A DNA stretch of 50,086 nt from a virus (IMGVR_UViG_3300017747_005419:1-50086); one strand, 5' to 3'. Positions 1,479 through 50,086 are shown, numbered from the stretch's first letter. Made by a program: numbers and translations. Notes: a model not told the origin generated them from the letters alone.

Positions 1479-1510
1479 AAGGAGGCTCCTTCGGGAGCCT
1501 CCTTTGCGTT
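1479..1510 (+). terminator. intrinsic terminator-like hairpin
   Basis: AAGGAGGCTCC-TTCG-GGAGCCTCCTT (11 bp, UUCG loop), followed by TGCGTT. Confidence 0.55.
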
Positions 1511-1533
1511 GGGGCCCTGATCTGCGACAATCC

Positions 1534-12800: not shown

Positions 12801-15108
12801 GCAGGCGCAGATGCGACGCGACCGCTTCGACCGGCTCATCCCGGCGGTGCTGAAGCGCCAGCTCGACAACGGCGTCGACATCGGGCCTCGTGGCGTCGAC
12901 ATCATCAACGACCCGACCAACGTCGGCGTGCAGTCGCTGTGGAAGGACTTGCAGGCCGAGGCTCGCCGCATCGTCGAAGCGAACAACGAGGCGGCGCGCG
13001 TGCAGTCGCAGGCCGGGTTCCTCACGTCGCTGTTCGGCCGCGCCGGCCTCACCGGCATGCCGTCGTCGCCGTACCGCATGAGCGAGAAGCAGATCCGTGC
13101 CGCTCTCGGCGAAGGACTCAGCGACGCCGGCATCAAGGCCGTCGTGGGGGCCCTCCTGCGGGCCCAGAACACCGGCTGGGAGTATCGGGGCCTCCTCACC
13201 CTCGAGGACGCCATGGTGTCCAACAGCTGGCTCCGTGGGGGCCTCAAGGCGCTGTCGGGTCACACCGCCGAGACGGACTTCGCTGCGTGGGCGCGCACGG
13301 CCGGCGTCGGCCCGAAGGCGATCCGCCCGGTGACGGCCACGCTGGCCCAGCCGCTGCAGGCGTTCCGCGAGATGGACTTCGCCAACAAGCACCGGCTCGC
13401 CTACGCGATCGCCGGCACCGGCATCGCCCTGCAGTCCAACGAGCAGATGGGTGGCGACAACCCCTTCGTCGCTGGCGCCGTGGGCGCAGCCACCGGCGCC
13501 GTCATGGGGCCGCGCATCGTCAACCCGCGCAACGTCATCCGCGCCTACGCCGCCTTCCAGGCCCAGTCGGTCGCGATGGGTGCGGGCGTCGAAGACCAGA
13601 ACCAGCGCATCGGCATCGCCCTCGGGGCCGGCCTCCTCGCCGGCACCGGTGCGAAGCGTGGCGCCTCCAAGGCCATCCACTTCCTCGACAACAAGGGCTG
13701 GGCCGAGTACTCGCGGCTCGGCCGCACGGCGCGCGTCACGCGCGACCGTCTGCGCTTCGCCCTCAACCCGATCTGGGACGCCCAGCGCTACACCGAGGGC
13801 ATCACGCAGGCCGTCATGGCCGACCTCCCACCGGGGGTCACGCTGCCGGTCACCGCACGCCCCATGCAGCGCCTCCTGCGCGACTACCCGGGGCTCACCG
13901 CCGACGATGCGACGCGCCACTGGCGCGAGGCGAGCGGGCACATCTGGGACCACGACACGCTCGACTCCATGCAGGACTGGTTCAGCGACCGCGGCATCAT
14001 GGGCTTCAGCCCCACCGAGTGGCACGCCGCAGCGTTCGGTCAGCTCACGCGCCAAGGCATGGACGAGGTGTCGGCGGTCGCCGCCGTCGAGAAGGCGTTC
14101 CTGTTCGGCATGCGACGCAGCGGACTCGAGAGCTCGGTCAACTTCGTCTTCTTCCCGTTCAGCTTCCAGAAGCACCTCGTCGGCAACATGGCCCGCTTCG
14201 CCGCCCAGGACATGGGCCGCGTCACGCTGATGCACGACTCGATCAAGGTGTGGGACGCGCTCAACGAGCGCTACGACCTCCCCGAGCGGTGGCGCGCACA
14301 CCTGCCGATCCTGTCGCAGGTGCGCAAGTTCAACCCGTTCGCCTACGGCATCACGCCCGGCGAGTTCGGTGGCGTCAACCGTGCCACCTACGAGGCGTTC
14401 AAGCGCCTCGACGGTGTCAACGAGGCGCACGATGCGGTGGCCAACGCCTTCCTCCCCCAGGGCATGCACGTCAACACCGAGTCGGGCTTCGACAACTGGC
14501 AGTCGTACAAGGGCAAGGTGCAGCGGCTCCTGCCGATCTGGCGCGAAGCCGAGGACATGTACCAGGAGGTGCTCGTCGAGCAGCTCCACACGTTCGGCAG
14601 CGAAGAGCACATCTCGAAGCAGACCGAGATCGATCGCGGTTGGGCCGAGCACGGCAAGCTCAACGACAGCATCAACGAGATGCTGCGCTCCAACGGGCTC
14701 GAGTACTCCAAGGTGATGCGCGCCGAACAGGGCTCGGCCCTGTTCGAGGTGAAGCAGCTGATTCAAGACCAGCGCTACGCCCTCGAGACGAAGTACCCGG
14801 CGTGGCGGCGCAGCAAGGAAGAGTCGACGCTGCGCGCCGTCGAACGCAACAGCGAGCTGCGCAAGATCATCAACAGCCCCCAGGACGACGTCGAGGCGAA
14901 CGCCGCCGACTTCGCCTCCCAACTCGACTTCCTGTCGGGCGTGCTCGGCTTCAATGTGGAGACGGAAACAGAGCAGCTCACCGCCGAGCAGTTCGACACG
15001 ATCCGGCGCACCGCCATCAGCAAGGCACGACAGACCCCGGGCTTCCAGACCATCTACCGGGCCTACTACCAACGGCTCTTCGGCCCGATCGAGAAGGAAC
15101 TGCGATGA
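9859..15108 (+). CDS. very large putative internal virion/ejection protein
   Basis: ~1749 aa, helical Ala/Gly-rich, with a FFPFSF motif near the C-terminus; ATGA overlap with upstream gene. Confidence 0.6.
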   Translation: MSMLENFSVPDLATVDLARPNLTLDTGGIEAKLQSINNSTQLWALPALPDVVKLDLASYGGFGASPINEFITGLASDIAAQTTTTIAPPSVDTTAFTNATNTQVAQAVSSPLPQAPPNVLFAPEDDFSSTFQTAFTKLAGISGPKRLATDSVVSMKAEAIKRGLIPADTPLDGSWGRQWNGVRSELMNEQFREVLAGDRPLGMPISGDDGVMGLLNKWASPTGLIGLATQLDFIPDFKQVASETEQWGNKWRRWWQNKTSPRDFIDAVTGPIDDVAFPIINTALLFTGVSGVVTYGRAVGMGSRLNAAAQAGRGISMFAGVTGLPTTGARILGTGARAFDVAAEVKRMQQASLIATRLQKAGGIAGQLGAGLEKWRQLSSTVLMKKAVQSGMKVGFAGRVEEFLLPDRQLGIGLTGETGGTTEQRAATFDDWWNRKIDNPWSMAAYSVAEVALSPTNIFKQGSIVGPLKSGTNRMLDAVVGTTNDRYNAVSFVTAAAEQIRATNPKRADEILSSVRAGKGKQALIDIYGGGDEWRAGKVVNWLQYNAALNSYARKEAALAIGEVHGPAYERAFRAFRMSALNQARGADFDLDTEFGRDAYRALASKIAAVDEAPTAAAARRKKIWDDLAEIHEETPEGLALRARAKTDLEQHAKVRQGTFKDLMEGLEPEDLAREIGDAWPTIDNWDAFESSMRQLEDATAFAPDGAVLRSVQDIRTGEFAHPLLMDDLGDMINNPKFTGRPLEWFDRTKAQMQEGRGRLTVARKDAVTAGAIEAYIDQINWLKARQVAIGMNDVGVTGLPLNTERWGQGLGDYANSVGKAVADLDANDIKAWIKDTPSIGGLRSVATQWAETVTWTARNGVDHMDAHGFLTRKLDELQNNDTFWSRAGVEKWNGPQQYTLDEKVKKLQERIEFVAKDVVVDPELAARLDAAGYKPVFGSDFTVPTDIMDLAGPLPEIKRLDLARKSLGTFVGHDRSFHTVQAQMRRDRFDRLIPAVLKRQLDNGVDIGPRGVDIINDPTNVGVQSLWKDLQAEARRIVEANNEAARVQSQAGFLTSLFGRAGLTGMPSSPYRMSEKQIRAALGEGLSDAGIKAVVGALLRAQNTGWEYRGLLTLEDAMVSNSWLRGGLKALSGHTAETDFAAWARTAGVGPKAIRPVTATLAQPLQAFREMDFANKHRLAYAIAGTGIALQSNEQMGGDNPFVAGAVGAATGAVMGPRIVNPRNVIRAYAAFQAQSVAMGAGVEDQNQRIGIALGAGLLAGTGAKRGASKAIHFLDNKGWAEYSRLGRTARVTRDRLRFALNPIWDAQRYTEGITQAVMADLPPGVTLPVTARPMQRLLRDYPGLTADDATRHWREASGHIWDHDTLDSMQDWFSDRGIMGFSPTEWHAAAFGQLTRQGMDEVSAVAAVEKAFLFGMRRSGLESSVNFVFFPFSFQKHLVGNMARFAAQDMGRVTLMHDSIKVWDALNERYDLPERWRAHLPILSQVRKFNPFAYGITPGEFGGVNRATYEAFKRLDGVNEAHDAVANAFLPQGMHVNTESGFDNWQSYKGKVQRLLPIWREAEDMYQEVLVEQLHTFGSEEHISKQTEIDRGWAEHGKLNDSINEMLRSNGLEYSKVMRAEQGSALFEVKQLIQDQRYALETKYPAWRRSKEESTLRAVERNSELRKIINSPQDDVEANAADFASQLDFLSGVLGFNVETETEQLTAEQFDTIRRTAISKARQTPGFQTIYRAYYQRLFGPIEKELR

Positions 15109-23281: not shown

Positions 23282-24964
23282 ATGGCCTTCGCCGTCACCC
23301 ACCGCGCCACTTCGACGGGCGGCACCACCGATGCGGCGACGCGTGCATCGGCGTCGTTCACGCCGGCAGCCAACTCGCTGCTGGTCGTGTTCGCACAGGT
23401 CGAGGGCAACGCTGCGGGCACCGCCGAGGTGCCCTCGTGGTCGATCTCGAACACCGGTGGCCTGACCTTCACGAAGCGGGTCGAGTCACCGTCGCTCAGC
23501 GCCGCGTACTACGGCACGATCGTGTGCTGGACCGCTCAGGTGGGCGGCAGCCCGTCGGCGATGACGGTGACCGTCGACCCCTACTCGGGCTCGAGCACCG
23601 GCTGGATCTCGATGTCGGTCTTCGACGTCACCGGCCACGACACCACGACCCCGATCGTGCAGTCCGCCGCCGAGAACGAGGACAACAACTACGCCACGCC
23701 GGGCACCAACATCTCGCGCACCACCACGGTGACGCTCGGCAGTGCGGCGGACACCGACAACCTGCTCCTCGCCGGCTTCGCCGGCACGTCCGATGCGGGC
23801 TCGATCCCGTCGACGCCGACGTCGTTCACGAGCATCGGTTCAGCGGCCGGCCCCTACGAGTCGATCCGCACCGCCTACCGCACGAGCACCACCCAGACGA
23901 CGGTGGCTTCGACGGCGACGTGCTACTTCAACTTCGGCGCCGTCGTCGAGATCGCTGCGGCCGGTGGCGGCTCCGACGCCACGGTGAGTGCGGCGGCGAT
24001 CGCCGCCACGGCCTCGGTGCCCACGCCGACGATCACGCGCACCGCCACGGTCGCTGCCACGGCGATCGCTGCGACCGCCGCCCTCCCGGCGCCGACGATC
24101 GTGCGCAGTGCCACGGTGCCAGCTGCGGCCATCGCAGCCACCGCTGCGGTGCCGACCCCGACCATCGTCCGCTCGGCCACCGTGGTGGCCACGGCGATCG
24201 CTGCGGTGGCGGGCGTTCCCACGCCCACCATCGCGCGCTCAGCTACCGTCGCTGCGGCAGCCATCGCAGCGACGGCCTCGGTCCCCACCCCCACCGTCAC
24301 GGTGGGCGGGGATGCCACGGTGAGTGCTGCAGCGATCGCCGCGACGGCGGGGGTGCCAACCCCGACCGTGACCCGCTCTGCGACGGTCACCGTCGCTGCG
24401 GTGGCTGCCACCGCTGCCGTGCCGGCCCCGACGGTCACCAGGAGCGCCACGGTGGCCGCTGCTGCGATCGCAGCGACCGCTGGGGTACCTACACCCACCA
24501 TCGTGCGCACGAGCCCGTTCCGGGCCTCTGTGTCGGGCCGGATGATGCCGACCGGCCTCACCAACCGCGCCACCCGGCAGATGCATGCAGGGCGCATCTA
24601 CCTCAGCTTGGGGAATGCGGTCGTCACCCCGGCCGCGATCGCTGCCACAGTTGGGGTACCCGCCCCGACGATCACCCGCTCGGCCACCGTCACCGTGGTG
24701 GCCATCGCCGCCGTCGTCACCGTGCCGGCACCCACCGTCGACGTCCCTTCGCCGAGCGCCACCGTCGTCGTGCAGGCCATCGCCTGCACCGTCGGCTTCG
24801 GCGCCACCGTCGACATCCCGACCACCGTGGTGGTCGAAGCGATCGCTGCCATCGCCGGGTTCCCGACGTTGCCGCGCATCCAGGCGCTGCGGCGCCAAGA
24901 CTGGACCCGCCTTCGCGTCAACACCGACGCCACACTCCCCGAGGTGCGCCACCGTGGCCGTTGA
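23282..24964 (+). CDS. fibre protein with ~22-aa Ala/Thr/Val/Pro repeats
   Basis: Beta-rich N-domain followed by repeats ATVxAxAIAATAxVPTPTIxRS. Confidence 0.7.
   Translation: MAFAVTHRATSTGGTTDAATRASASFTPAANSLLVVFAQVEGNAAGTAEVPSWSISNTGGLTFTKRVESPSLSAAYYGTIVCWTAQVGGSPSAMTVTVDPYSGSSTGWISMSVFDVTGHDTTTPIVQSAAENEDNNYATPGTNISRTTTVTLGSAADTDNLLLAGFAGTSDAGSIPSTPTSFTSIGSAAGPYESIRTAYRTSTTQTTVASTATCYFNFGAVVEIAAAGGGSDATVSAAAIAATASVPTPTITRTATVAATAIAATAALPAPTIVRSATVPAAAIAATAAVPTPTIVRSATVVATAIAAVAGVPTPTIARSATVAAAAIAATASVPTPTVTVGGDATVSAAAIAATAGVPTPTVTRSATVTVAAVAATAAVPAPTVTRSATVAAAAIAATAGVPTPTIVRTSPFRASVSGRMMPTGLTNRATRQMHAGRIYLSLGNAVVTPAAIAATVGVPAPTITRSATVTVVAIAAVVTVPAPTVDVPSPSATVVVQAIACTVGFGATVDIPTTVVVEAIAAIAGFPTLPRIQALRRQDWTRLRVNTDATLPEVRHRGR
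23978..24870 (+). repeat. degenerate in-frame tandem repeat (~66 bp)
   Basis: About a dozen copies of the ATV..AIAA.A.VP.PT unit, interrupted once near 24510-24615. Confidence 0.75.
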
Positions 24965-27900
24965 TTTCGCGACCCTCTTCCAGACCTTCTACCCGCCGGG
25001 CCCCGGCCGGCAGTACGTGAACCCTTCGACGGGCAGCGACTCGAACGCCGGCACGGCCGGGTCACCGAAGCGCACCATCAGCGCAGCCCAGTCCGCCCTC
25101 GGGTCGGCCGGCGGCATCGTGTGGTGCGCCGACGGGGTGTACCCGTCGGGTCAGGTCATCTCGGGCACCTACGCACTGAACTCGCGCCTGCTCGTGATGG
25201 CCCAGAACATCGAAGGCGCAACGATCGTCTGCAACAGCAACGACGGCATCGCCATCAGCGGCCGAGGCATCGGGGTCTACGGGTTCCACATCACCGGCAA
25301 CGGCGACACCGGCTCGTTCGTGTACCAGAAGTGCATCCTGATCTACGGCGGCGCCACCTACGTGTCGGTGTGGAAGAACTACTGCTTGAAAGGCTGCGAG
25401 GCAGGCATCGGCGTGCCGTCGCAGAACCTCGTCAGCGACTACATCGACATTTGCTACAACACCGTCGAAGAGTGCGGGCGTTGGTTCTTCAACGCGGGCT
25501 CGGGCATTTCGATGTACGAGTGCCGCCAGGCCGACAACAACCCGGGCCCGCACATCAACGTCATCGGGAACCGCTGCTTCCACAACTACAACAACACGAG
25601 CACGGCCAACACCGACGGCAACGGCATCATCATCGACGACTTCTTCAACAGCCAGAACGGCTACAGCAACGACCACCGTGGGCTCGTCGTGGTGGCCGGC
25701 AACCTGTGCGTCGACAACGGCGGGCGCGGCACGCACAGCCCGTGGTCGACGAACGTGTGGCATGCGTTCAACACCTGTGCCGACAACATGTGGCAGGTCG
25801 AGCCGGGCTCGCGCGGCGGCGAGTGCGCCGTCGGCGGCAGCCTCAGCAAGCTGAACTGCAACGTCATCTGCCCCGACTCGGGGCGCTATGCGAACGGCCA
25901 GATCGTCTCGTCGTACTTCCACACCTCGTCCGACTTCGGTGGGCGCTTCATCGGCTCCTACGTCGGCGACAACACCGCACTCGCCGGCTCGTACTTCGGC
26001 AGCAACGACGGGTCGGTGCGCAACCGCACCGGTGAAGGCAAGAACTACTTCAAGGACACGACGCCGACGCTCGCACCGCGCACGCTCGAGCTCGCCGACC
26101 AGTGGCGCCCCGAGGGCGGCAGCGGCGCCGTCGAGACGACGGTGCTCACCCAGGCCGAGTACGACATCTTGTCGCGCTGGCCCGACATGTTCGGCGACTA
26201 CCGCCCGGCGCGCACCACCGGGTGGGCGCACGGCTTCGCCGAGCCTTCGGCGACGACACCGCCGACAGGCTCGCACCCCTACACCGGCCCCGGCTCGGGT
26301 GCCGGTTCCGTCGTGTCGAGCTCGAGTGGTGGCACCGGCTACGGCGGCACCATCACCAACGTCATCTACCGCATGCTCGGCATTGACGGCACGGTGATCA
26401 ACGCACGCGCCGTCATCATCGTGCCGGGTGGTTCGGCGCCGGCGAACGGTCGCAACGTGATCGCGATCTGCCACGCCGCCGACGGCCTCGAGTCGGGCGG
26501 CGGGATCCAGGCCGACTCGGTCGGCGGTGACATCTCGACGTTGATCTCGTCGGGCTACGTGGTGGTGTGCGTCGACAACGAAGGGCTTAACGACTCGTCG
26601 ACCGGCAACACGAAGCCGAACCCGTACATCAACCGCAACAGTGCGGGCCGCGGCGTCATCGATGCGGTGCGCGCCACCGCCTCGCTCACGTCGATCTCGG
26701 GCCACGTCGCTGCGTGGGGCTGGAGCCAGGGTGGTGCCACCGCTCTCGCTGCAGGCGAGCTCCACAAGCAGGGCTACGGCGACCTGCACAACATGCTCGC
26801 CGTCGCTGTCGACGCCGTGCACCCCGAGAACTTCGTGTCGGGGTACTACAACCAGGGCTGGGCTGCGGGCTACTGCCAGGGCATCTGCATGGGCGCCTGG
26901 TACGAGGGCCGCACACTGAACCTCGCGAGCATCTTCAACGGTTCGATCGCGAGCAACATCAGCGCCGGCATCTACGACAACTTCGACGTCGAGTCGCTGC
27001 CCGGCGGGTTCATCACGAACCCGACGAGCGTGACGGCGTGGGCGACGGCGCTGCGCACCAACTCGTTCGGCTACGTGCGGTCGTCGAAGGTGCTGCTGAT
27101 GCCGGCGAGCGCCGGCATCGACGGCGGCTACGTGGCCAACGACGCCTACTACAACCGGGCGGTCGCAGCGGGCACGAGCATCGATCGCACCAACGTGTCG
27201 GCGGACCACTCGGGTGCGCCGGCCGCTGCAGCGTCGACGGCGCGCGCCTGGATCGCAGCGAACATCGACGCCGAGGATCTCTCGAGCGGCAGCGTCGCAC
27301 CGACGGCGAGCTTCACCTACTCGCCGAGCTCGATCACCGTCGGCCAGGCCGTCACCTTCTCCGACGCCTCGGCCGGTGTGCCGACGTCGTGGGAGTGGGC
27401 GTTCGGCGACGGGACGGGCGTCGACCTCCCCGAGCCAGGGCTCAACTCGGCCGGCCACTTCAGTGGCCGCATCCTGCGCGACGGTCAACCCCTCGAAGGG
27501 GTGGTCGTCAAGGCGGTGAACATCCTCTGCAGCGGCTGGCCGCGCATCCCGGTGCTCGACACCCTCGGTGGCGCCGACGGCACCGAGGTGATGATCGACA
27601 CCACCGACGTCAACGGCGACTGGTCGATCACCGGGCTCGATTCCGGCAAGGACTACATGCTGAAGATTTTCCCGCCGTCGTTGTGCGACGCCTACGGCGA
27701 GATGTCGAACCCGGTGTACATCACGAGCGAAGCGGGCTACGTCAACGACAGCGGCAACCCGTTCATGAGCACGCGCGCCGCCCCGGGCTCCGACACGTAT
27801 GCGGTCTACGGTGCGGGCCGCTACCTGTTCGACATGCCGGTGCACGTCTTCCCGGCGGTCGGCGGGGCACTCGACGGTGCCTCTGGGTACAGCGACCTCA

Positions 27901-28901
27901 ACGTGCTCTTCTACACGCGCGAGGGTTCGTTCCCCACGAGCAACGGCACCCACAGCGGGTGCACCTCGGGGGCTGGGCCGACCGGGTCGACCTTGCAGAA
28001 CCCGACCCACACCTACACCGCTCCGGGCACCTACGTGGTGCAGCTGACGGCGACGAACGCCGTCGGCTCGTCGACGAGCTCGCAGACGGTCACCGTCACC
28101 GCCCAGCCGACCGGCGGTGGCCTCACGCTGCAAGCCGAGGACGCCTCGCTCACCACCGCCTACCCGGGCGACCCCTACGCCATCCACATCGTGGCCGAGA
28201 ACCCGGGCTACACCGGCACGGGCTACGCCGGCTACCACGGCCAGACCGGCGAGAAGCTGACGTGGTCGTTCACCGCACCGAACGGTGCGGGCACCTATGC
28301 GATCACGTTCCGCTACCGCTGCATCGAAGCGGTGACGCGCACCGTGTGGGTGAACGGCACCAGCCAGGGCACCCTGTCGCTGCCGGCGTCGGCGTCAGCG
28401 TTCACCCAGAACAGCTGGGGCACGAGCGTCACGATCACCGTGGCACTCTCGGCCGGGGCGAACACGCTCGAGCTGCGCCACGCAGGCGCCAACTTCTCGG
28501 GCTACCTCGACGTCGACTCGGTGAGCCTCACCGGTGGCGGCACTGCGGCCACCGTGGTGGCCACCGCCATCGGTGCCGTGGCCGCACTGCCCGGCGTGTC
28601 GATCGGTACCGCCACCGTCGTCGACGCCCGACCCACCCCGCCGAGCATCGCCTGCGCCGTCGGGGCGCATTCGCTCGTCGGCTTCCAGGCGACGGCCACC
28701 GTCACCCCGGCGGCGATCGCAGCGACCGCCGGCATCGACAACACCGGGCTCTACGGCGACATCCCGATCATCCACGTCACCATCGAAGCGCAGAGCATCG
28801 CAGCGCGGGCAGGCTTCCCTGCGGCCGACATCGAAGCGATGCGCCTCCTCGCCGGCCGCTACCGGCTCCTCGGCAACACCCGTCAACGGACCACAGGATG
28901 A
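24954..28901 (+). CDS. multi-domain fibre/receptor-binding protein: beta-helix + secretory-lipase-type hydrolase + split PKD + CBM35/CBM6-like + AIAA repeats
   Basis: GTG at 24954 with GAGGTG RBS. YVNPSTGSDSNAGT..P.RTI, DGNGIIID (beta-helix); GYVVVCVDNEGL, GWSQGG (hydrolase); WAFGDG and QNPTHTY (PKD); QAEDA...GYTGTGY...LDVDSV (CBM). Confidence 0.8.
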   Translation: MAVDFATLFQTFYPPGPGRQYVNPSTGSDSNAGTAGSPKRTISAAQSALGSAGGIVWCADGVYPSGQVISGTYALNSRLLVMAQNIEGATIVCNSNDGIAISGRGIGVYGFHITGNGDTGSFVYQKCILIYGGATYVSVWKNYCLKGCEAGIGVPSQNLVSDYIDICYNTVEECGRWFFNAGSGISMYECRQADNNPGPHINVIGNRCFHNYNNTSTANTDGNGIIIDDFFNSQNGYSNDHRGLVVVAGNLCVDNGGRGTHSPWSTNVWHAFNTCADNMWQVEPGSRGGECAVGGSLSKLNCNVICPDSGRYANGQIVSSYFHTSSDFGGRFIGSYVGDNTALAGSYFGSNDGSVRNRTGEGKNYFKDTTPTLAPRTLELADQWRPEGGSGAVETTVLTQAEYDILSRWPDMFGDYRPARTTGWAHGFAEPSATTPPTGSHPYTGPGSGAGSVVSSSSGGTGYGGTITNVIYRMLGIDGTVINARAVIIVPGGSAPANGRNVIAICHAADGLESGGGIQADSVGGDISTLISSGYVVVCVDNEGLNDSSTGNTKPNPYINRNSAGRGVIDAVRATASLTSISGHVAAWGWSQGGATALAAGELHKQGYGDLHNMLAVAVDAVHPENFVSGYYNQGWAAGYCQGICMGAWYEGRTLNLASIFNGSIASNISAGIYDNFDVESLPGGFITNPTSVTAWATALRTNSFGYVRSSKVLLMPASAGIDGGYVANDAYYNRAVAAGTSIDRTNVSADHSGAPAAAASTARAWIAANIDAEDLSSGSVAPTASFTYSPSSITVGQAVTFSDASAGVPTSWEWAFGDGTGVDLPEPGLNSAGHFSGRILRDGQPLEGVVVKAVNILCSGWPRIPVLDTLGGADGTEVMIDTTDVNGDWSITGLDSGKDYMLKIFPPSLCDAYGEMSNPVYITSEAGYVNDSGNPFMSTRAAPGSDTYAVYGAGRYLFDMPVHVFPAVGGALDGASGYSDLNVLFYTREGSFPTSNGTHSGCTSGAGPTGSTLQNPTHTYTAPGTYVVQLTATNAVGSSTSSQTVTVTAQPTGGGLTLQAEDASLTTAYPGDPYAIHIVAENPGYTGTGYAGYHGQTGEKLTWSFTAPNGAGTYAITFRYRCIEAVTRTVWVNGTSQGTLSLPASASAFTQNSWGTSVTITVALSAGANTLELRHAGANFSGYLDVDSVSLTGGGTAATVVATAIGAVAALPGVSIGTATVVDARPTPPSIACAVGAHSLVGFQATATVTPAAIAATAGIDNTGLYGDIPIIHVTIEAQSIAARAGFPAADIEAMRLLAGRYRLLGNTRQRTTG

Positions 28902-43974: not shown

Positions 43975-44220
43975 GTGGAATGTCCACGTTGCGGGCTACC
44001 CCGTGAGGGGTGTGACCTGCTGTTTTGTCCCGAATGCGGGAAGTTGTGGTCGCGCGATGACCTCTCGAGTGTCCAGCTGCAGGGGCCGGCGGGCATGAGC
44101 CCCCGCGTCGAACGCTTCCTGGCCACCGGGGACGCCGACTACACCGACGCCCGGATCCCGATCGCGGTGACCGACCGGGCCAACGCCGACCTGCCACGCC
44201 ACATCGGCGGTGACGCATGA
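43975..44220 (+). CDS. zinc-ribbon protein
   Basis: AAGGAG RBS, GTG start. CPRC...CPEC. Confidence 0.7.
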   Translation: MECPRCGLPREGCDLLFCPECGKLWSRDDLSSVQLQGPAGMSPRVERFLATGDADYTDARIPIAVTDRANADLPRHIGGDA

Positions 44221-44333
44221 GCACGCTGCCGCTGTGGGTCCGATGGTCGTGCCTGCTTGCGTTCCTCGTCGTCGTGGTGCTCTTCTTCCTGCACAAGGGC
44301 ACCGACTGGGACGACTATGAGGAGGGCCAGTGA
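44217..44333 (+). CDS. 38-aa membrane microprotein
   Basis: MSTLPLWVRWSCLLAFLVVVVLFFLHKGTDWDDYEEGQ; overlaps on both sides. Confidence 0.6.
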   Translation: MSTLPLWVRWSCLLAFLVVVVLFFLHKGTDWDDYEEGQ

Positions 44334-44695
44334 GCGGTCAACGCTGGCGCACGCTGCGCGTCGCCGATCTCGAGAAGCGCCTGCGCCCCGAGCAGGGCAC
44401 GCCGATCGAGTTGCCGGCCGACGCCAAGTGGGCCGTCCTGGTGCCCCCAGGGGCGCCCAACAGCCTCGTCGACCTCGTCTGGCTGGGTGAGATCGGCATG
44501 CGCATGCCAGGGCGCCTGCGGTGCGCCACGACGCCCGACGGGCGCGTCTATGCGGGCACCGAGCACACGCCGCTGCGCGACGGACTCGCCGCAGCGGCCC
44601 ACGGCCAGCTGGCGGCGTGGCGCGCCGAGCACGGCGCCGAGCTCGAGAAGCGGTACCCACCGGTCGCGCCGGCGTTGAAAGGACTGTGGCTGTGA
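44330..44695 (+). CDS. hypothetical protein
   Basis: GAGGAGG RBS, GTG start, 121 aa. Confidence 0.65.
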   Translation: MSGQRWRTLRVADLEKRLRPEQGTPIELPADAKWAVLVPPGAPNSLVDLVWLGEIGMRMPGRLRCATTPDGRVYAGTEHTPLRDGLAAAAHGQLAAWRAEHGAELEKRYPPVAPALKGLWL

Positions 44696-44850
44696 GCACT
44701 CCCATGTTCGACCTGCCCGAGCACTGGTGGATCCCGGTCAACAAGAACCACGACGGGCCCGTTTACGAGGACGGGCCCGCCTTCGACCACTTCTGCTGCG
44801 CCTGCGGTGATCACGACTGCAACAAGGCCGCACCGTTGAGGTCGGACTGA
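44692..44850 (+). CDS. small Cys/His-rich protein
   Basis: GTG at 44692. HWW...CCACGDHDC. Confidence 0.55.
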   Translation: MSTPMFDLPEHWWIPVNKNHDGPVYEDGPAFDHFCCACGDHDCNKAAPLRSD

Positions 44851-45170
44851 TGGCTGTGAGGTTCGAGACGGCCGACGAATGGATGGACGCCGCGGCGCAG
44901 CTCACGCTGCACCCCGACTGGTCGGTGCGCGTCGAGGTGCTCGTCCCCTGGTGGGAGGTAGCGGTCCACTTCGATCATCGCGCCCTCGACTCGCACGCTC
45001 CGCACGAGCGCGAACGCCGCATCAGGTTCACGTACTCCGTGGCCATCCCGACGCCTGAGCCGGTCAAGTACCTGCACCACCTGTGGCGCCGGTCGTGGCA
45101 GCACGAGGCCGACGAGTGGTTCCGCCACAACGGCGAGCTGGTCGACGATCCGCATGCGAGGTGGCTCTGA
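44850..45170 (+). CDS. hypothetical protein
   Basis: TGATG coupling. C-terminal HEADEWFRHNGELVDDPH. Confidence 0.7.
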   Translation: MAVRFETADEWMDAAAQLTLHPDWSVRVEVLVPWWEVAVHFDHRALDSHAPHERERRIRFTYSVAIPTPEPVKYLHHLWRRSWQHEADEWFRHNGELVDDPHARWL

Positions 45171-45421
45171 TGGCGATGCCGAAGAAGCTCCGACCGCGCC
45201 GACGCATCAACATCCCGCCCGAGGCGGTGATGGCGTCGACGACGGCGCGCTGGCTGTGGCAATACGCCCGCTCCGACATCACGTTCACGATCGCCACGGT
45301 GGCCGCGCGCTCGGGCATTCCCGAGGCGACGTTCGAGCCCACGGTGGCGTGGTTCGTCGGCCAGAAGTGGATCGAGCGGGTGCCGAACCAGACGCAGGTG
45401 GTCTACGTCGGACGGGTCTGA
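45170..45421 (+). CDS. small winged-HTH-like protein
   Basis: FTIATVAARSGIPEATFEPTVAWFVGQKWIER. Confidence 0.6.
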   Translation: MAMPKKLRPRRRINIPPEAVMASTTARWLWQYARSDITFTIATVAARSGIPEATFEPTVAWFVGQKWIERVPNQTQVVYVGRV

Positions 45422-45488
45422 TACCGTCGCCGACGGCTGACAGGATCGCTCGGGCTGTTCGGATGGCTCCTTCCGGCCCGGGACGCGC

Positions 45489-45526
45489 AAGAGCCCCAGC
45501 ACGAGAGTGCTGGGGCTCTTTGCGTT
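45489..45526. terminator. bidirectional terminator hairpin
   Basis: AAGAGCCCCAGCAC-GAGA-GTGCTGGGGCTCTT (14 bp) between convergent operons. Confidence 0.75.
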
Positions 45527-45539
45527 GGGAGCCATCCCG

Positions 45540-45616
45540 TGGAGGCGGCGGGGATCGAACCCGTGGGATACTGGGGGTCTAAGGGCCCCAGCAGGTGCAC
45601 CAGCACCACCGCCCCC
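45540..45616 (-). tRNA. atypical tRNA-like RNA with alanine identity (G3.U70, A73) and 9-nt loop centred on UUA
   Basis: GGGGGCG/CGCCTCC-A acceptor; GGTGC-TGGT-GCACC D-like arm; TGCTGGGG-CCCTTAGAC-CCCCAGTA; T-arm ACGGG-TTCGATC-CCCGC; no encoded CCA. Confidence 0.7.
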
Positions 45617-45621
45617 TGGTG

Positions 45622-45762
45622 TCAGCGCACCGGCCGTTGTGCCAGGTTGCTGCCCCGCTGGGGCTCGTTGCCGTGCAGGTAGACCCTGTGCTCATCGACC
45701 TCGTCGTCGGTGCCTTCGAACCCGCAGTACGGGCACCAAACCGTGACGTGACTGCGGTTCAT
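45622..45762 (-). CDS. small C2H2-like zinc-finger protein
   Basis: GGAGGT RBS. CPYC...H...H. Confidence 0.6.
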   Translation of the reverse strand: MNRSHVTVWCPYCGFEGTDDEVDEHRVYLHGNEPQRGSNLAQRPVR

Positions 45763-46157
45763 CGGGTACCTCCGAGGTGGTTGGCGGACTTCGGCGTGAG
45801 GTCGTTCTCGAGGCCGGCGAACGGGTCGGCCTCGCGTTCGGCGTCGCGTTCGGCTGCCAGCTTGATGGCGTCGCGTGCGACGCTGCGCAGCACCTTCGCC
45901 GCCTTCGGGGCGTCGTAGGCCAGCTGGTCGACGAGCGCCGGGGTCCAGAGCCCCCAGAGGCCGGTGGCGGCAGGCGTGGCCTGCAGCACCTTGAGCGGGT
46001 CGCCGTCGAACAGCACCACGAGGAACGACTCGACGTAGGCGTTGCGCTCCGCCTTGGCCACGGCGCCACCTTCGTGGCCGAGTGGCCACTGGCGGCTGTG
46101 GCGCTCCTTGATGGCCGCACGGGCGGCGAGGTGGTTGAGGACGGTGGTCTTGCTCAT
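45759..46157 (-). CDS. hypothetical protein
   Basis: GAAGGAGCCACCCG-ATG. MSKTTVLNHLAARAAIKE... Confidence 0.7.
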   Translation of the reverse strand: MSKTTVLNHLAARAAIKERHSRQWPLGHEGGAVAKAERNAYVESFLVVLFDGDPLKVLQATPAATGLWGLWTPALVDQLAYDAPKAAKVLRSVARDAIKLAAERDAEREADPFAGLENDLTPKSANHLGGTR

Positions 46158-46432
46158 CGGGTGGCTCCTTCGGTGTCGGTGACGACCTGGCGGATGGCGG
46201 CATCGCGCGTGCGGTGCCCGAACGTGGACCGGAACTTGGGGCCGTTGGACGCCCACAGGGTGTCCCAGGTGCTCTTCGTTTCGGCGCCGTGCAGCACGTA
46301 GCCGAGCACGGCGTCGTCACTGGTGCGGTGCACCACGTAGGCCGGGACGGCCTCGCGTGTGCCCTTCAGGTCGATGGCCTTGAGACGCACGCCCGGCACC
46401 TGGGTGCCGAGGCTGCGGTTGCGGTTGGTCAT
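46154..46432 (-). CDS. hypothetical protein
   Basis: GGGGAG RBS. MTNRNRSLG...VLGYV...W...RTRDAAI. Confidence 0.7.
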   Translation of the reverse strand: MTNRNRSLGTQVPGVRLKAIDLKGTREAVPAYVVHRTSDDAVLGYVLHGAETKSTWDTLWASNGPKFRSTFGHRTRDAAIRQVVTDTEGATR

Positions 46433-46433
46433 C

Positions 46434-46739
46434 TCACTCCCCCTTCGGGTCGAGCTCGCACGCCCCGGCGCCGTGGCGGTAGCCGCAGGCGTTGCAGAAC
46501 GATGAGCGGGCGATGATGGCCCAGTCGGGCAGGTCGACGAGCACGTCGCAGTCGCGGTCGATGGCGACGATGAGGTCGAGGGCGGCACGGTGGTCGACAC
46601 CGAACACGACGGTGTCGCCGGTCAGGTTGTCGACGCCTTCGAACACGATGACCGTGTCGGTGAGGCTGCCGGTGCGGTAGTCCTCGACGAGCACGAGCGT
46701 GCCGTTGGGGACGTAGTCGATGGAATCGAGGGTGGTCAT
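46434..46739 (-). CDS. hypothetical protein with C-terminal CxxC..H....C
   Basis: GAAGGAGCCACCC-ATG. MTTLDSIDYVPNGTLVLVED... Confidence 0.7.
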   Translation of the reverse strand: MTTLDSIDYVPNGTLVLVEDYRTGSLTDTVIVFEGVDNLTGDTVVFGVDHRAALDLIVAIDRDCDVLVDLPDWAIIARSSFCNACGYRHGAGACELDPKGE

Positions 46740-46818
46740 GGGTGGCTCCTTCAGGTGAGGCCGAGCGCCTCTGGGAACCACCGGCCCGAAGGCCGGTAGC
46801 TCCCCGCGATGCTCAGCG
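46737..46818 (-). ncRNA. structured intergenic RNA motif, copy F
   Basis: cgcUGAgcaUCGCG-[GGGAGCUACCGGCC UUCG GGCCGGUGGUUCCC]-A-[GAGGC GCUCG GCCUC]-accug-AAGGAGCCACCC-AUG. Confidence 0.75.
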
Positions 46819-47070
46819 TGGGGCGTGCACGTAGATCGGGTCGCCGTGCAGGATGTGCACGACCCGACCGGTGTCGAGGGTGAGCGAGGTGAACTCGTTG
46901 TCGTCCTCGATGGCGTCGATGCGGTGCGCCGTGTAGGCGGTGCCCTCGGCGTTGACGAGGGCGTAGCGGTCACGGAAGCTCAGCGCCCGGTGAGGGGTGC
47001 GCCGCACGTTGCCGAGGTGGAACGGGTGGATCGTGTGCCCTTCGAGCGGGTCGAACGGGAGGTGGTTCAT
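46813..47070 (-). CDS. hypothetical protein
   Basis: GAAGGAGCCACCC-ATG. MNHLPFDPLEGHTIH... Confidence 0.7.
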   Translation of the reverse strand: MNHLPFDPLEGHTIHPFHLGNVRRTPHRALSFRDRYALVNAEGTAYTAHRIDAIEDDNEFTSLTLDTGRVVHILHGDPIYVHAPR

Positions 47071-47096
47071 GGGTGGCTCCTTCGGTGTTGGGATTG

Positions 47097-47126
47097 ACAC
47101 TACACGGTGCTGTGCTCACCTTGCAA
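47097..47126 (-). promoter_or_regulatory. sigmaA-like promoter embedded in a hairpin
   Basis: TTGCAA-N18-TAGTGT. The -35 box is the centre of dyad GCTGTG(A)CTCACC-TTGCAA-GGTGAGCACAGC. Confidence 0.5.
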
Positions 47127-47132
47127 GGTGAG

Positions 47133-47921
47133 TCACAGCCAGCCGTGCTTCTTGGCGCACACCGGGCCGATGCCCCGGGCCACCGACGCCTCGTCTTCGA
47201 GGGGACGGGAGCACAGGCCACAGGTGCCGGTGAGCTGGCCGTACCGCTCTGCAGCGGCGCGGGGGTCGGCCAGGATGGCCGTGAGCTGCTCGACGAGCCG
47301 ACCGGCGTAGGTGCGGCCCGGCGCTTGCTTGCCGTACCGCTCACCGCTGCCGTACTCGGCGGCGTCCTTCACGAACACCCAGCCAGCCCAGTTGCCACGC
47401 TCGACGTTGTCGATCTCGAGCTTCAGCCGGGTGTCGCCACCAGGGACCGCATAGCGGCCACTGGGGAGCCCGGACAGGTCGAGGCCGGCGTCGGCCTGCG
47501 TGGCCCGTGGGCGGGCCGGTGGTGGCGTGCGTGCGAGGTCGTAGAGCACCTCGCCGCGCACCTTGGCGGGCCCGAGGATCGGGCCGAGGTTGACGTCAGC
47601 GGTGCTGCCGTCGGCCTTCGTGACGACCACGGTGGTGCCCTCGGCACCGCGTGGCCCTCGAACCACCCACTTGCCCGTGTGGTCGTTCTTCGCCCACCGG
47701 TAGGTGGGCCCGTCCGACGTGTAGGTGTGGGTGGTGCCCTCGCCGCCCCCTGCGGGGCGCTCGGGCGCTTCCACCGAGCTGGGCCCGGGAGCTCGACGCA
47801 GCAGCGCGAGCGGGCCTTCGGTGGGCGCTGGTCCGCATTCCCAACAGGGACCGCCGAACAGCGGGTCGTGGTCCGTCCCCTTGCACGTCGTGCAGTTGGG
47901 GTCGGAGTAGGTGGTGATCAT
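47133..47921 (-). CDS. DUF6011-like zinc-binding protein
   Basis: C-terminal CGLCSRPLEDEASVARGIGPVC; N-terminal CTTC...CWEC. Confidence 0.75.
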   Translation of the reverse strand: MITTYSDPNCTTCKGTDHDPLFGGPCWECGPAPTEGPLALLRRAPGPSSVEAPERPAGGGEGTTHTYTSDGPTYRWAKNDHTGKWVVRGPRGAEGTTVVVTKADGSTADVNLGPILGPAKVRGEVLYDLARTPPPARPRATQADAGLDLSGLPSGRYAVPGGDTRLKLEIDNVERGNWAGWVFVKDAAEYGSGERYGKQAPGRTYAGRLVEQLTAILADPRAAAERYGQLTGTCGLCSRPLEDEASVARGIGPVCAKKHGWL

Positions 47922-47994
47922 GATGGCTCCTTTCGATGCTGACGCATCTGAGAACCACCGGCCTGTCGGCCGGTAGCTCTCCGCTGGGTCAGCG
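47919..47994 (-). ncRNA. structured intergenic RNA motif, copy E
   Basis: cgcUGAccCAGCG-[GAGAGCUACCGGCC GACA GGCCGGUGGUUCUC]-A-[GAUGC GUCA GCAUC]-ga-AAGGAGCCAUC-AUG. Confidence 0.75.
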
Positions 47995-48456
47995 CTGCAG
48001 TGCGTCGAAGGCTGCGTAGAGCAGCTCGACGGCGTGCTCGTCGCTGGCTTCCCACTCCCGGGCGAGGGGCGGGTTGTCCGACTCTTCGAGGGTGTTGAGC
48101 GCGGCCCGGTTCTGGGCCCACCCAGCGACCGCCTCGGCGCCCAGGAGGCGCTTGAGGATGTCGAGCTGGCGCCGCGCTTGGTCCTCGGCGTCGGCCACGG
48201 CCTCGATGAACGAGGAGTGGCTGTCGGTGTCGAGGTGCCAGCACACGAGGTGCTCGAACAGCGTGTTCGGCTCGGCGTAACGGTCGGGCACCTCGGCCAG
48301 GTCGATCTCGCCGAGCGTGAGCCCTTCGACGTCGAAGTCGAAGTCGCCCACGCCGTCGATGAAGCACTGGCTCACGGCCGAGGCGTTCTCGGCCTCCACC
48401 TCGACGGTGCCGAAGTAGCGGCCGAACTGGAGGAGGGTTGCGCGGTAGGTGTTCAT
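47989..48456 (-). CDS. hypothetical protein
   Basis: AAGGAGCCATCACC-ATG. MNTYRATLLQFGRYFGTVEVEAENA... Confidence 0.7.
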   Translation of the reverse strand: MNTYRATLLQFGRYFGTVEVEAENASAVSQCFIDGVGDFDFDVEGLTLGEIDLAEVPDRYAEPNTLFEHLVCWHLDTDSHSSFIEAVADAEDQARRQLDILKRLLGAEAVAGWAQNRAALNTLEESDNPPLAREWEASDEHAVELLYAAFDALQR

Positions 48457-48537
48457 GGTGATGGCTCCTTGGTGTTGCTGATGCTGACTGCATCTGGCTG
48501 CCACCCCCGAAGGGGTGGCACCCCGTTGCGTTCAGCT
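48454..48537 (-). ncRNA. structured intergenic RNA motif, copy D
   Basis: agcUGAacgCAACG-[GGGUGCCACCCC UUCG GGGGUGGCAGCC]-A-[GAUGC AGUCA GCAUC]-agcaacacc-AAGGAGCCAUCACC-AUG. Confidence 0.75.
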
Positions 48538-48777
48538 GAACTTGGTCGCGCTGACGATGCGGTTGTGGCCTCGGAACTTCACGATGGTGAAGACGTGCAG
48601 GCCGCACTCGTTGCCGGTGAGCTGGTGGCCGACGGTGCTGTTGGCCAGCGTGCGCAGGCGCACGGTGGAGTGGTCGTCGAGCTCGATCGACAGCTCCCAC
48701 GTTGGGTTGCCCGACGACGAGCAACGCAGGCGCTGGGCGTCCACGATGCGACCGCTGATGATGTTCTTGGTGGTCAT
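48532..48777 (-). CDS. small beta-rich hypothetical protein
   Basis: AAGGAGCCATC-ATG. S.SGNP.W motif. Confidence 0.7.
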   Translation of the reverse strand: MTTKNIISGRIVDAQRLRCSSSGNPTWELSIELDDHSTVRLRTLANSTVGHQLTGNECGLHVFTIVKFRGHNRIVSATKFS

Positions 48778-48860
48778 GATGGCTCCTTGGTTGCGAAGGC
48801 TGAGACGCCTTCGCCCAACCCACCGTCAACGGACGGTGAGCTGGACGCTGTGTCTCAGCG
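48775..48860 (-). ncRNA. structured intergenic RNA motif, copy C (most divergent)
   Basis: cgcUGAgacaCAGCG-[UCCAGCUCACCGUC CGUU GACGGUGGGUUGGG]-C-[GAAGGC GUCUCA GCCUUC]-gcaacc-AAGGAGCCAUC-AUG. Confidence 0.75.
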
Positions 48861-49124
48861 GCCGGGCACTCGAACCGAGTGCTGCTCCAGGCGACGGCAG
48901 AGCGTCGCCAGGATGTTGTGGCGGGCCCGGTCGTTGTAGATCGCCGCCTTGTGGTTGCCGATCGCATCGGCGAACGGCTGCACGAACTGACCGGCGATGT
49001 CGATGGTCGTCCGGTTGAACCGGATCCCCGGGCCGGTGAGCCCGGCGTGCTGGATCGCGGCCTCGGCCTCGGCGATGTGGCTGCGGGTGAGGCCCTTGAG
49101 GGTGATGCCCTGGTGGGTGTGCAT
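48855..49124 (-). CDS. hypothetical protein
   Basis: AAGGAGCCATC-ATG; 89 aa. Confidence 0.7.
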   Translation of the reverse strand: MHTHQGITLKGLTRSHIAEAEAAIQHAGLTGPGIRFNRTTIDIAGQFVQPFADAIGNHKAAIYNDRARHNILATLCRRLEQHSVRVPGR

Positions 49125-49205
49125 GATGGCTCCTTGGGTTGGTGATGCTTAGCAGCATCTGGCTGCCCACCTCATGGGAGGTGGGCACCCCGCTGGCGCT
49201 CAGCG
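49122..49205 (-). ncRNA. structured intergenic RNA motif, copy B
   Basis: cgcUGAgcgcCAGCG-[GGGUGCCCACCUC CCAU GAGGUGGGCAGCC]-A-[GAUGC UGCUAA GCAUC]-accaaccc-AAGGAGCCAUC-AUG. Confidence 0.75.
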
Positions 49206-49490
49206 TTCGAGGATGACGACTTTCTCGCCCGGGTAGACGTCGACAGCCTCGTCGTGCAGCTGCAGGCGCACGGCTTGGGTGCCGTAGCGCTCGCCGTCGA
49301 CGGTGGTGATGTCGAGCACCTCGCGGTAGCTCTTGCGTGTCCAGCGTCCGAGGGTGTCGGGGCTGTAGGTCACGAGGGTGTCGCCTTGGGCGACCCGATG
49401 GGCCGACACGATGAGGAGCGGTGCGTCGTCGTTGACGTGCTCCCAGTAGCCGCAGCCCTGGTTGCTGTCGAGGGGTGGGTTGATGGTCAT
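49200..49490 (-). CDS. hypothetical protein
   Basis: AAGGAGCCATCC-ATG. MTINPPLDSNQGCGYWEH... Confidence 0.7.
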   Translation of the reverse strand: MTINPPLDSNQGCGYWEHVNDDAPLLIVSAHRVAQGDTLVTYSPDTLGRWTRKSYREVLDITTVDGERYGTQAVRLQLHDEAVDVYPGEKVVILER

Positions 49491-49570
49491 GGATGGCTCC
49501 TTGGTGTGCGATGCCTGAGGGCATCTGGCTGCCCTCCAGTCGCCTGGAGGGCACCCCGCTGGCCTCAGCT
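49488..49570 (-). ncRNA. structured intergenic RNA motif, copy A
   Basis: agcUGAggcCAGCG-[GGGUGCCCUCCAG GCGA CUGGAGGGCAGCC]-A-[GAUGC CCUCAG GCAUC]-gcacacc-AAGGAGCCAUCC-AUG. Confidence 0.75.
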
Positions 49571-49927
49571 GCGCTTGCTGGCTTCGACGTCGTCGATGAC
49601 CGCCCCGAGGGCTCCGAGCAGGGCTCGGGCCTCGGTGAGGCTGACGAAGACGCTGACGTCGCCGAACTGCACGGCGACGGTGTCGCGGTACAACCGGAGG
49701 GCGTCGACCTCGCACGCCTCGTTGCCTGCGAGCAGGCTCTGGGGCGTGTGGATGTTCACCTTGTGGTGGTCGTGGTCGGGCGAGGTGTACTCGGTGACCT
49801 CGACGTGGGTGCCGTCGAGCACCCACGTGTGGGTGGTGGCCTCGAAGGTCGGGATCCCGTCACCGGCCTCCTCGTAGCGGTTGGCTTCGACTCGGACGGT
49901 GGTGGTGGGTTCGATGGTGATGCTCAT
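49565..49927 (-). CDS. hypothetical protein
   Basis: AAGGAGCCATC-ATG; 120 aa. Confidence 0.7.
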   Translation of the reverse strand: MSITIEPTTTVRVEANRYEEAGDGIPTFEATTHTWVLDGTHVEVTEYTSPDHDHHKVNIHTPQSLLAGNEACEVDALRLYRDTVAVQFGDVSVFVSLTEARALLGALGAVIDDVEASKRS

Positions 49928-50086
49928 GATGGCTCCTTGGTGTCCAGCGGTGTCGCTGGCCGAGGTGACCAGGGCGAGGATGCTGGGGTCGGCTCACGGC
50001 CGGGCTGCTGTAGCTCGGGCTCATGCCACCCGCTACCGGCCCTAGCCGGGGCGCTGTGGATCTGCCAGCGGTTGTCGTCTTGGTCA

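Follow-up and report, generated by a model that had tools for sequence, protein, structure and literature searches.

A repeated, covarying RNA motif between small genes of high-GC tailed phages, a possible separator of cistrons

Introduction

In phage T7, the RNase III sites R0.3 to R1.3 allow processing between early genes, and the 3′ hairpin stabilises the upstream message. In T4-type phages, repeated intergenic stem-loops bound small ORFan early genes in promoter-early stem-loop (PeSL) cassettes. Here we analysed a stretch of viral DNA of 50,086 nt, IMGVR_UViG_3300017747_005419 (hereafter the window), in which six spacers of an array of small genes carry one RNA motif: two tandem hairpins, with the loop of the second complementary to the stretch around the stop codon upstream. 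The motif belongs to a family shared with related phages. It is probably an RNA-level processing, stabilising or insulating module, that is, a new RNA structure with a known kind of role. Our specific reading, to which we give a probability of roughly 0.45, is that the motif is intercistronic punctuation of mRNA processed by a nuclease.

Two other groups of elements are close in position or form. In prophages, multiple hammerhead ribozymes flank single genes, and processing of long phage transcripts into gene-length mRNAs has been proposed (Perreault et al. 2011, PMC3088659); clustered prophage hammerheads and transcript processing are also treated in PMC6765202. Bacterial self-cleaving ribozymes lie near each other, and this proximity has been used to find new classes (PMC6765202, PMC5737381). 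Cluster K mycobacteriophages carry the start-associated sequence (SAS), an asymmetric 13-bp repeat containing AGGAG that is found 3-8 bp ahead of start codons in the non-structural arm, with a single orientation. The extended start-associated sequence (ESAS) consists of imperfect 17-bp inverted repeats, whose arm departures lend no support to RNA pairing; a DNA-binding protein is the explanation that its authors prefer (PMC3203893). SAS and ESAS are also found in Cluster EF Microbacterium phages (PMC7302621).

Six spacers share one layout

The six-copy array sits at the right end of a high-GC, ~50-kb phage genome, on the minus strand. Reading this strand together with the open reading frame (ORF) list confirmed the six spacers that an earlier note, made from the sequence alone, had delimited between consecutive small genes (49564-49491, 49199-49125, 48854-48778, 48531-48457, 47988-47922 and 46812-46740, minus strand; copies c1 to c6), each running 67-77 nt from a TGA stop to the next ATG. 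The upstream gene ends in (A/C)GC-TGA in all six cases. Each spacer then forms a hairpin of 12-14 bp with a 4-nt loop (P2; loops GCGA, CCAU, CGUU, UUCG, GACA and UUCG in c1 to c6) and, 1 nt 3′ of it, a second hairpin of 5-6 bp (H3; GAUGC/GCAUC in four copies, GAAGGC/GCCUUC and GAGGC/GCCUC in the others). After H3 come 2-9 A/C-rich nucleotides, the Shine-Dalgarno block AAGGAGCCAYC, a gap of 0-3 nt and AUG. The CAGCG box noted earlier before P2 is exact in four copies and reads CAACG in c4 and UCGCG in c6.

The H3 loop is complementary to the stretch that contains the stop codon, termed X (UGAGG/CCUCA, UGAGAC/GUCUCA, UGAC/GUCA, UGAGC/GCUCG). The resulting helix, a potential pseudoknot, has 4-6 bp in c1, c3, c5 and c6, one mismatch in c2 and 3 bp in c4. 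All six copies thus show the same order: an intercistronic, sense-oriented element with box, P2, H3 bearing an X-pairing loop, A/C linker and Shine-Dalgarno sequence.

In c1 (49508-49572, minus strand, as for all copies), the pseudoknot 5′ strand CUGAGG includes the stop (49568-49563) and is followed by the CAGC box (49561-49558), P2 (49556-49527), the H3 5′ strand (49525-49521), the loop that supplies the pseudoknot 3′ strand CCUCAG (49520-49515) and the H3 3′ strand (49514-49510). P2 occupies 49190-49161 in c2 (49142-49206), whose pseudoknot is imperfect (UGAGC/GCUAA, one G.A mismatch), and 48847-48812 in c3 (48793-48861), where H3 is GAAGGC/GCCUUC and the pseudoknot UGAGAC/GUCUCA. The pseudoknot of c4 (48478-48539; P2 48523-48496) is short, UGA/UCA, or GCUGA/UCAGC with the top of H3 open. 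That of c5 (47933-47996; P2 47983-47948) is UGAC/GUCA or GCUGAC/GUCAGC, and c6 (46756-46820; P2 46806-46771; H3 GAGGC/GCCUC) has UGAGC/GCUCG.

The window contains 10 copies of AAGGAGCCAYC, all of them on the minus strand and within 45462-49938, against 0.03 copies expected by chance; ATG lies 0-3 nt downstream of nine of them. The tenth, an exact copy of AAGGAGCCATC at 45462-45472 (minus strand), has no start codon after it and lies just past a 14-bp hairpin with which the array seems to end. The block resembles SAS in being a conserved, Shine-Dalgarno-containing sequence within a few bases of ATG that keeps one orientation and accompanies non-structural genes only, and it shares AGGAGCC with the Cluster K consensus GGGATAGGAGCCC. 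However, its full sequence is unlike GGGATAGGAGCCC, and it is an analogue, not a member. The inverted repeat with a variable spacer immediately upstream of the block is likewise reminiscent of ESAS. The arms of ESAS do not covary, whereas those of the motif covary strongly, and the motif has in addition H3 and its pseudoknot with the stop codon.

Related phages carry the motif and its stems covary

Relatives of the window were reached only through the large terminase gene (terL). A terL protein search returned 18 IMG/VR loci at 46-54% identity, and a metagenome search returned 23 loci, mostly contigs already among these; the latter added L200 (loci are numbered) and no closer relative of the window. 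The DUF6011 protein of the array led to 29 loci, and in none of them was the window's AAGGAGCC start block repeated on a single strand; a search with a 337-aa exonuclease-like protein gave no related locus. The relatives carry a matching small-gene array upstream of terL on the opposite strand. Many of their spacers repeat the layout of the window in other sequence, namely X, a (C/U)AGC box, P2 and H3 with an X-pairing loop. Every collected copy lies between two same-strand small ORFs, in an array divergent from terL. A loose descriptor search, used only to locate copies, gave 97 candidates, mostly false ones in GC-rich coding DNA.

Ten relative copies of equal length were aligned without gaps and without window copies (alignment A4). 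In A4, 94.6% of the cells were paired, compared with 77.6% after shuffling, and 15 of the 24 pairs had changed on both sides. A covariance model built from these 10 copies (R1), and hence from no window sequence, found more copies in L176, L183 and L200. L200 has 10 motif copies; L183 is part of a 51-kb genome that is complete and carries terminal repeats. When its filters were turned off, R1 also detected a single copy in L174 (24.8 bits), and it placed the window copies at ranks 1, 2, 3, 5, 9 and 19 of the 74 hits obtained over the 50-kb window. Three of them were clear and three weak: c1 scored 27.7 bits (E 2.6e-5, rank 1), c4 23.3 bits (E 3.3e-4, rank 2), c2 20.1 bits (E 0.0021, rank 3), c3 17.3 bits (E 0.011, rank 5), c6 14.0 bits (E 0.07, rank 9) and c5 10.1 bits (E 0.68, rank 19).

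A larger alignment of 34 copies from seven records, with rows chosen by the analyst (A6), gave 92.2% paired cells, compared with 69.0 ± 1.0% for shuffles, of which none in 500 was as high; 21 of the 24 pairs showed changes on both sides, and slid controls gave 37-52%. In P2, 94% of the cells were paired and 12 of 13 pairs had changed on both sides. H3 was 100% paired, with covariation at three of four pairs and the two outer pairs alternating between GC and AU. The helix between X and the H3 loop was 83.9% paired, and six of its seven pairs were doubly changed (for example AU 15, UA 8 and GC 7 at one pair). In the pseudoknot columns, the window rows c3 and c5 are shifted by one position, which counts against the structure in A6. 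Covariation across these 34 copies bears out the earlier observation that widely differing stems stay paired.

The signal is strand-specific. Minus-strand RNA was more stable than plus-strand RNA in all six window copies, by 3.5-15 kcal/mol. The minimum-energy folds of the six copies contain 0, 0, 3, 0, 2 and 4 G.U pairs, which would be A.C on the complement, and this asymmetry fits RNA. Consistently, R1 scored sense copies at 52-83 bits and antisense copies at 16-41 bits. Strand asymmetry, G.U pairs and covariation together support the earlier proposal of RNA-level selection on the transcribed strand.

A DNA-level element, be it a protein-binding palindrome, a PeSL-like hotspot of cassette-shuffling recombination or a small mobile palindrome, is highly improbable given these data. 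The stems differ almost fully yet stay paired, whereas a binding site would conserve sequence; the G.U pairs and the difference between sense and antisense are compatible with RNA, or with a lone strand, but not with a duplex; and all copies are oriented with transcription. Of the 20 larger window ORFs scanned, none matched an integrase or transposase family. Integron cassette arrays have an IntI-type tyrosine recombinase close by, and their attC sites carry RYYYAAC/GTTRRRY core sites at the ends of imperfect palindromes; the ends of the motif, GCUGA.. and ..UCAGC, are not attC cores. What a DNA element would explain is the presence of near-identical copies beside unrelated genes (c5/c6; L172 3536-3602/L171 2359-2425), and the similar-looking ESAS repeats of Cluster K are ascribed to DNA-binding proteins in PMC3203893.

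As for these near-identical copies, c5 and c6 share 86% identity across 42 nt (46766-46807 versus 47943-47984) and have unrelated neighbouring genes. The copy at L172 3536-3602 is near-identical to that at L171 2359-2425 from the box onward; the stop-proximal strand differs, and different genes follow. Near-identical copies by unrelated genes hint at gene exchange by recombination within the motif. Repeated stem-loop modules with similar copies beside unrelated genes are also a feature of PeSL cassettes. In contrast to PeSLs, the motif spacers carry no promoter consensus, and the evidence for the motif is RNA-level pairing.

Pairing with the stop codon gives a pseudoknot or a long hairpin

The spacer folds beat their own shuffles (z -3.5 to -5.5), with energies of -38 to -50 kcal/mol. 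The earlier note had drawn three hairpins; P2 and H3 hold, whereas the first hairpin is unsupported and the pseudoknot was missing from the drawing. The rejected hairpin 1 (GCUG/CAGC) had 54.4% of its cells paired in the 34 copies, compared with 56.3% in shuffles (487 of 500 shuffles as high), and in c4 and c6 its pairing is lost with no compensatory change.

P2 consists of a base of 3-4 bp, often followed by an internal loop or mismatch, and a variable upper stem of 7-14 bp; the internal loop is conserved in L176, L183 and L200 and absent from c3, c5 and c6. Within the window, an in-register permutation test of the pairing between X and the H3 loop found 10 of 720 permutations to be as good, which is modest evidence. 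An unconstrained duplex-energy test of cognate versus non-cognate X and 3′ flanks of the window copies was not significant (277 of 720).

ViennaRNA favoured a long imperfect hairpin in three of the six spacers, and in four of six when they were trimmed. RNAalifold, which draws no pseudoknots, chose a nested alternative: its consensus has the helix between X and the loop outermost, the invariant CA of the box paired with the invariant UG of H3, and then P2. Both conformers contain the helix between X and the loop, and they differ in whether UG pairs with the upstream or the downstream CA. By analogy with kissing-loop complexes, the geometry permits a loop of 6-7 nt to pair along its whole length with another strand; where the H3 loop has 4 nt, the top of H3 would have to open. 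The pairing of X with the H3 loop is either a pseudoknot or, with H3 opened, an alternative long hairpin, as one fold or as two conformers.

The long-hairpin conformer, being the minimum-energy fold of four of the six trimmed copies and the RNAalifold consensus, can be compared with the T7 RNase III sites, which comprise about two helical turns of imperfect double-stranded RNA and, like the motif, are hairpins of ~55-65 nt repeated between consecutive early genes at a genome end. The conformer has an upper stem of 12-14 bp, a conserved internal loop and a lower stem of 5-8 bp, and the outcome proposed here, a 3′ hairpin stabilising the upstream message, is also that of T7. The two are, however, unrelated in sequence, T7 has no equivalent of H3 and the pseudoknot, and RNase III cutting of the motif is only proposed.

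Strong GC-rich hairpins (-38 to -50 kcal/mol) directly after stop codons would also suit factor-independent terminators or attenuators without a U-tract, which would set up a decreasing gradient of expression along the array; U-less terminators have been proposed for Actinobacteria. We regard this as extremely improbable. A scan of 45300-50086 gave no U-tract terminator-like site, consistent with the earlier statement that these are not terminators, and relatives at 53-54% GC also lack a U run after P2. A consensus scan found no sigma-70-like promoter in 45300-50086, and six to ten terminators in series without an intervening promoter consensus would silence the distal genes. H3, the pseudoknot and the CAGC box would moreover be left unexplained.

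The motif matches no Rfam 15 family and shares arrays with type II hammerheads

Rfam 15 had no match to the motif in the whole window at gathering score, in 45300-50086 at E<=10, or in the arrays of L200 and L172 at E<=5, in line with the earlier note, which did not recognise the fold. The notion of a candidate new system thus stands in part: the motif is outside Rfam 15, but it is not private to this phage, since related phages carry copies, and it is better described as a family. The type II hammerhead (Hammerhead_II, RF02276) had no match in the window at gathering score, nor over 45300-50086 at E<=10, and GAAA and CUGANGA are absent from c1-c6 by reading. Other ribozyme classes (twister, twister-sister, pistol, hatchet, HDV-like, hairpin, VS and glmS) had no match in the window at E<=10 or in L200 and L172 at E<=5.

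Pattern searches gave a similar picture. The exact pattern GCAGCCAGATGC..GCATC had 76 single hits in IMG/VR, none in the context of a hairpin and a Shine-Dalgarno sequence; the exact pattern CCAAGGAGCCATCATG had 57 loci there, and the only locus with two hits, L164, is without the hairpins. A core pattern of the L176 type matched only the contig of L176 itself in IMG/VR. In 185,579 species genomes (one per prokaryotic species) it had 30 hits, which by eye were coding or chance matches; R1 accepted one of these 30 (L226, 29.9 bits, at the locus edge). The motif is probably undescribed in Rfam 15 and the literature searched, with the supplementary list of 224 motifs of PMC5737381 outside the comparison.

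In the arrays of the relatives, by contrast, the same search detects 20 Hammerhead_II at Rfam gathering scores (six in L174, four each in L171 and L172, three each in L173 and L177). Six further ones are in L209, L192 and L207, and all hammerheads lie on the array strand. Importantly, the two element types share arrays. In L172, four hammerhead spacers are followed by five motif spacers in one gene chain; L171 has four hammerheads and three motif copies in one array; and in L174 six hammerheads are followed by a piece resembling transfer-messenger RNA (tmRNA) and then by one motif copy. The window, L200, L176 and L183 carry the motif only, within the DNA examined.

The two elements are alike in several respects. 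They occupy the same intercistronic slot on the same strand at the same size, in the same arrays of L171, L172 and L174. Both place two tandem hairpins after the stop and pair the stop-proximal strand with a 3′ partner, and both continue with a short leader and a Shine-Dalgarno sequence. In contrast to Hammerhead_II, for which self-cleavage is established, the motif has it only as a candidate activity; it lacks the CUGANGA, GAAA and UH core of the three-stem junction, and its stop-proximal strand pairs with the loop of the second hairpin and not with a strand beyond it. The earlier note had read the repeats as elements of mRNA processing or stabilisation. That reading gains weight from the arrays shared with type II hammerheads, although the function is not demonstrated.

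Several other features were seen in these arrays. A hammerhead-like spacer at L171 2990-3069 (minus strand) has an extra core A (CUGAAUGAG) and was missed at the Rfam gathering score; by its sequence, it may be a variant or decayed ribozyme. In the motif part of L172, a 140-nt spacer contains a weakly tRNA-like segment at 2495-2564 (minus strand; RF00005, 21.5 bits, E 0.48), which is also mascRNA-like (20.7 bits), both below the gathering score. tmRNA-like elements reduced to the tRNA-like domain are found by Rfam at L174 790-891 (minus strand, 61.6 bits) and L176 3389-3469 (plus strand, 60.3 bits).

Given the shared arrays, a new class of self-cleaving ribozyme that replaces the type II hammerhead in the intercistronic slot has to be considered. 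Slot, strand and size (~60-70 nt) match Hammerhead_II in the arrays of L171, L172 and L174, the fold is compact, pseudoknotted and strongly covarying, and searches at E up to 5-10 matched it to none of the known ribozyme families. We nevertheless consider such a class doubtful. Known small ribozymes keep roughly at least 10 invariant core nucleotides, whereas the conserved single-stranded positions of the motif are very few, (C/U)AGC only; the P2 internal loop of L176, L183 and L200 is lacking in c3, c5 and c6; and there is no mark of a cleavage site. In its fullest form the proposal would make the motif a thirteenth small self-cleaving ribozyme class, a ~60-nt pseudoknotted RNA with a minimal (C/U)AGC core, interchangeable with hammerheads, that would cut early transcripts into single-gene messages, with cuts timed by the ribosome terminating at the stop inside the pseudoknot. 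This form is equally doubtful.

A possible separator of cistrons

On the reading that we tentatively prefer, copies of the motif would punctuate a polycistronic early transcript in a clade of tailed phages with high GC content. A nuclease of the host or the phage, with RNase III, E and P as candidates, would cut this transcript within or beside the motif. The upstream message would retain a stable 3′ structure, and the downstream message would begin with a clean, unstructured ribosome-binding site. Type II hammerheads would do the same job in the arrays of related phages.

Several points weigh against this. Structure, strand, family, position and hammerhead co-residence are observed, whereas we infer cleavage and its agent by analogy with the hammerhead neighbours and the early RNase III sites of T7. 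Co-residence comprises two lineages only, the close relatives L171 and L172, and L174, and two element types in one operon could equally have two different jobs. Among 113 flanking proteins, no pair of homologous genes from different records was preceded by a hammerhead in one case and by the motif in the other. The analyst-chosen rows of A6 favour the structure. The R1 scores of the window copies are low (10-28 bits), and in a control of 86 unrelated viral loci (798 kb) R1 had a single hit, of 24.5 bits, that by eye is not a copy; because this is as high as the middle window copies, score alone is insufficient for c3, c5 and c6, and the membership of c5 and c6 rests on layout and not on score. 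Finally, only about four unpaired positions, (C/U)AGC, are conserved, which is little for a nuclease and argues against a catalytic core.

The position of the stop codon raises the possibility of a device that does not cleave but insulates or couples translation. The fold would lock the GC-rich flanks while the leader and Shine-Dalgarno sequence stay open, and the stop in X would be brought near the next ribosome-binding site; the terminating ribosome would melt the helix between X and the H3 loop and be handed to the next start. Indeed, the stop overlaps X in 24 of the 34 copies and lies inside X or at most 25 nt upstream in 33. The linker between H3 and the Shine-Dalgarno sequence is 89% A+C, the latter is unpaired in five of the six minimum-energy folds of the window, and each phage has its own invariant, strong Shine-Dalgarno block. 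Two mutually exclusive pairings, H3 or CA:UG with the outer helix, also fit the alignment, as a switch would need. However, neither of the two conformers masks or frees the Shine-Dalgarno sequence, which leaves no visible regulatory logic, and the stop lies 3-22 nt upstream of X in nine of the 34 copies. Hammerheads in the same arrays argue for separating cistrons, not for coupling them, and the truly coupled array genes of the window (ATGA overlaps at 46154 and 45759) carry no motif copy. We judge coupling or non-cleaving insulation to be rather unlikely and retain processing between cistrons as the preferred reading.

Arrays in which hammerheads, tRNA-like pieces and the motif fill equivalent slots offer a direct test of early transcript punctuation, a proposed role of phage hammerheads. 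If a host nuclease cuts the motif, it would be a portable processing signal for high-GC hosts; if the motif cuts itself, it would be a new ribozyme class. As a natural cistron insulator composed of a structured block, an A/C-rich leader and a strong Shine-Dalgarno sequence, it could be reused in synthetic operons, and it is usable as a boundary marker for small ORFan genes in metagenomic phage genomes. It may also explain the ESAS-type repeats of cultured actinophages, for which RNA pairing was dismissed.

Genome context of the array

The source record is linear and 100% complete by CheckV, with a GC content of 65-71%. The large terminase gene lies at 1504-3660 on the plus strand, which also encodes a portal-like gene, a capsid gene and tail-type genes. 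The right third is transcribed from the minus strand and includes primase, DnaB-type helicase and exonuclease-like genes; the motif region is the outermost part of this arm. The capsid protein shares no more than 35.5% identity with any in 50,697 cultured phage records, and region 46000-50086 has no DNA-level similarity among the same records.

The leftward array comprises 11 small genes running from 49927 to 45622, called from the ORF list and codon-position GC. Genes 1 to 5 lie at 49927-49565, 49490-49200, 49124-48855, 48777-48532 and 48456-47989, gene 6 (262 aa, Pfam DUF6011) at 47921-47133, and genes 7 to 11 at 47070-46813, 46739-46434, 46432-46154, 46157-45759 and 45761-45622, all on the minus strand. 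In PHROGs, nine of the 10 array proteins scanned had no family, the tenth being the DUF6011 protein; gene 11 was outside the scan. The spacer that follows the DUF6011 gene (47071-47132, minus strand) is without the motif; it has a different hairpin of 7 bp (CTCACCTTGCAAGGTGAG) together with TTGCAA-N18-TAGTGT, a weak promoter-like sequence not called by the consensus scan.

Directly 3′ of the last array gene, before the terminal hairpin, lies a tmRNA-like piece with the tRNA-like domain only (45537-45616, minus strand; RF00023, 27 bits, E 3.7e-8, below the gathering score of 47). As in L174 and L176, ~280-300 model positions are missing. The perfect 14-bp hairpin at 45489-45520 (strand not assigned), between the array and a convergent plus-strand cluster, is likely the end of the array transcription unit; the terminator scan missed it because it has no T run of five. 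The converging cluster consists of four small plus-strand genes (44217-45421), one of which resembles a small DNA-binding protein, by eye only.

Elsewhere in the window, two giant ORFs of 1288 aa (5996-9862, plus strand) and 1753 aa (9847-15108, plus strand) lie between the portal-like and capsid genes; the former matches DUF7178, and the latter had no Pfam or PHROGs match. A 1438-aa ORF (24585-28901, plus strand) contains PKD, CBM35 and secretory-lipase-type domains and probably encodes a tail-associated enzyme that acts on the host surface. The left end at 180-500 (plus strand) is non-coding and rich in short inverted repeats of G-runs and C-runs (for example ~205-230 and 440-480), and could be a packaging or end region.

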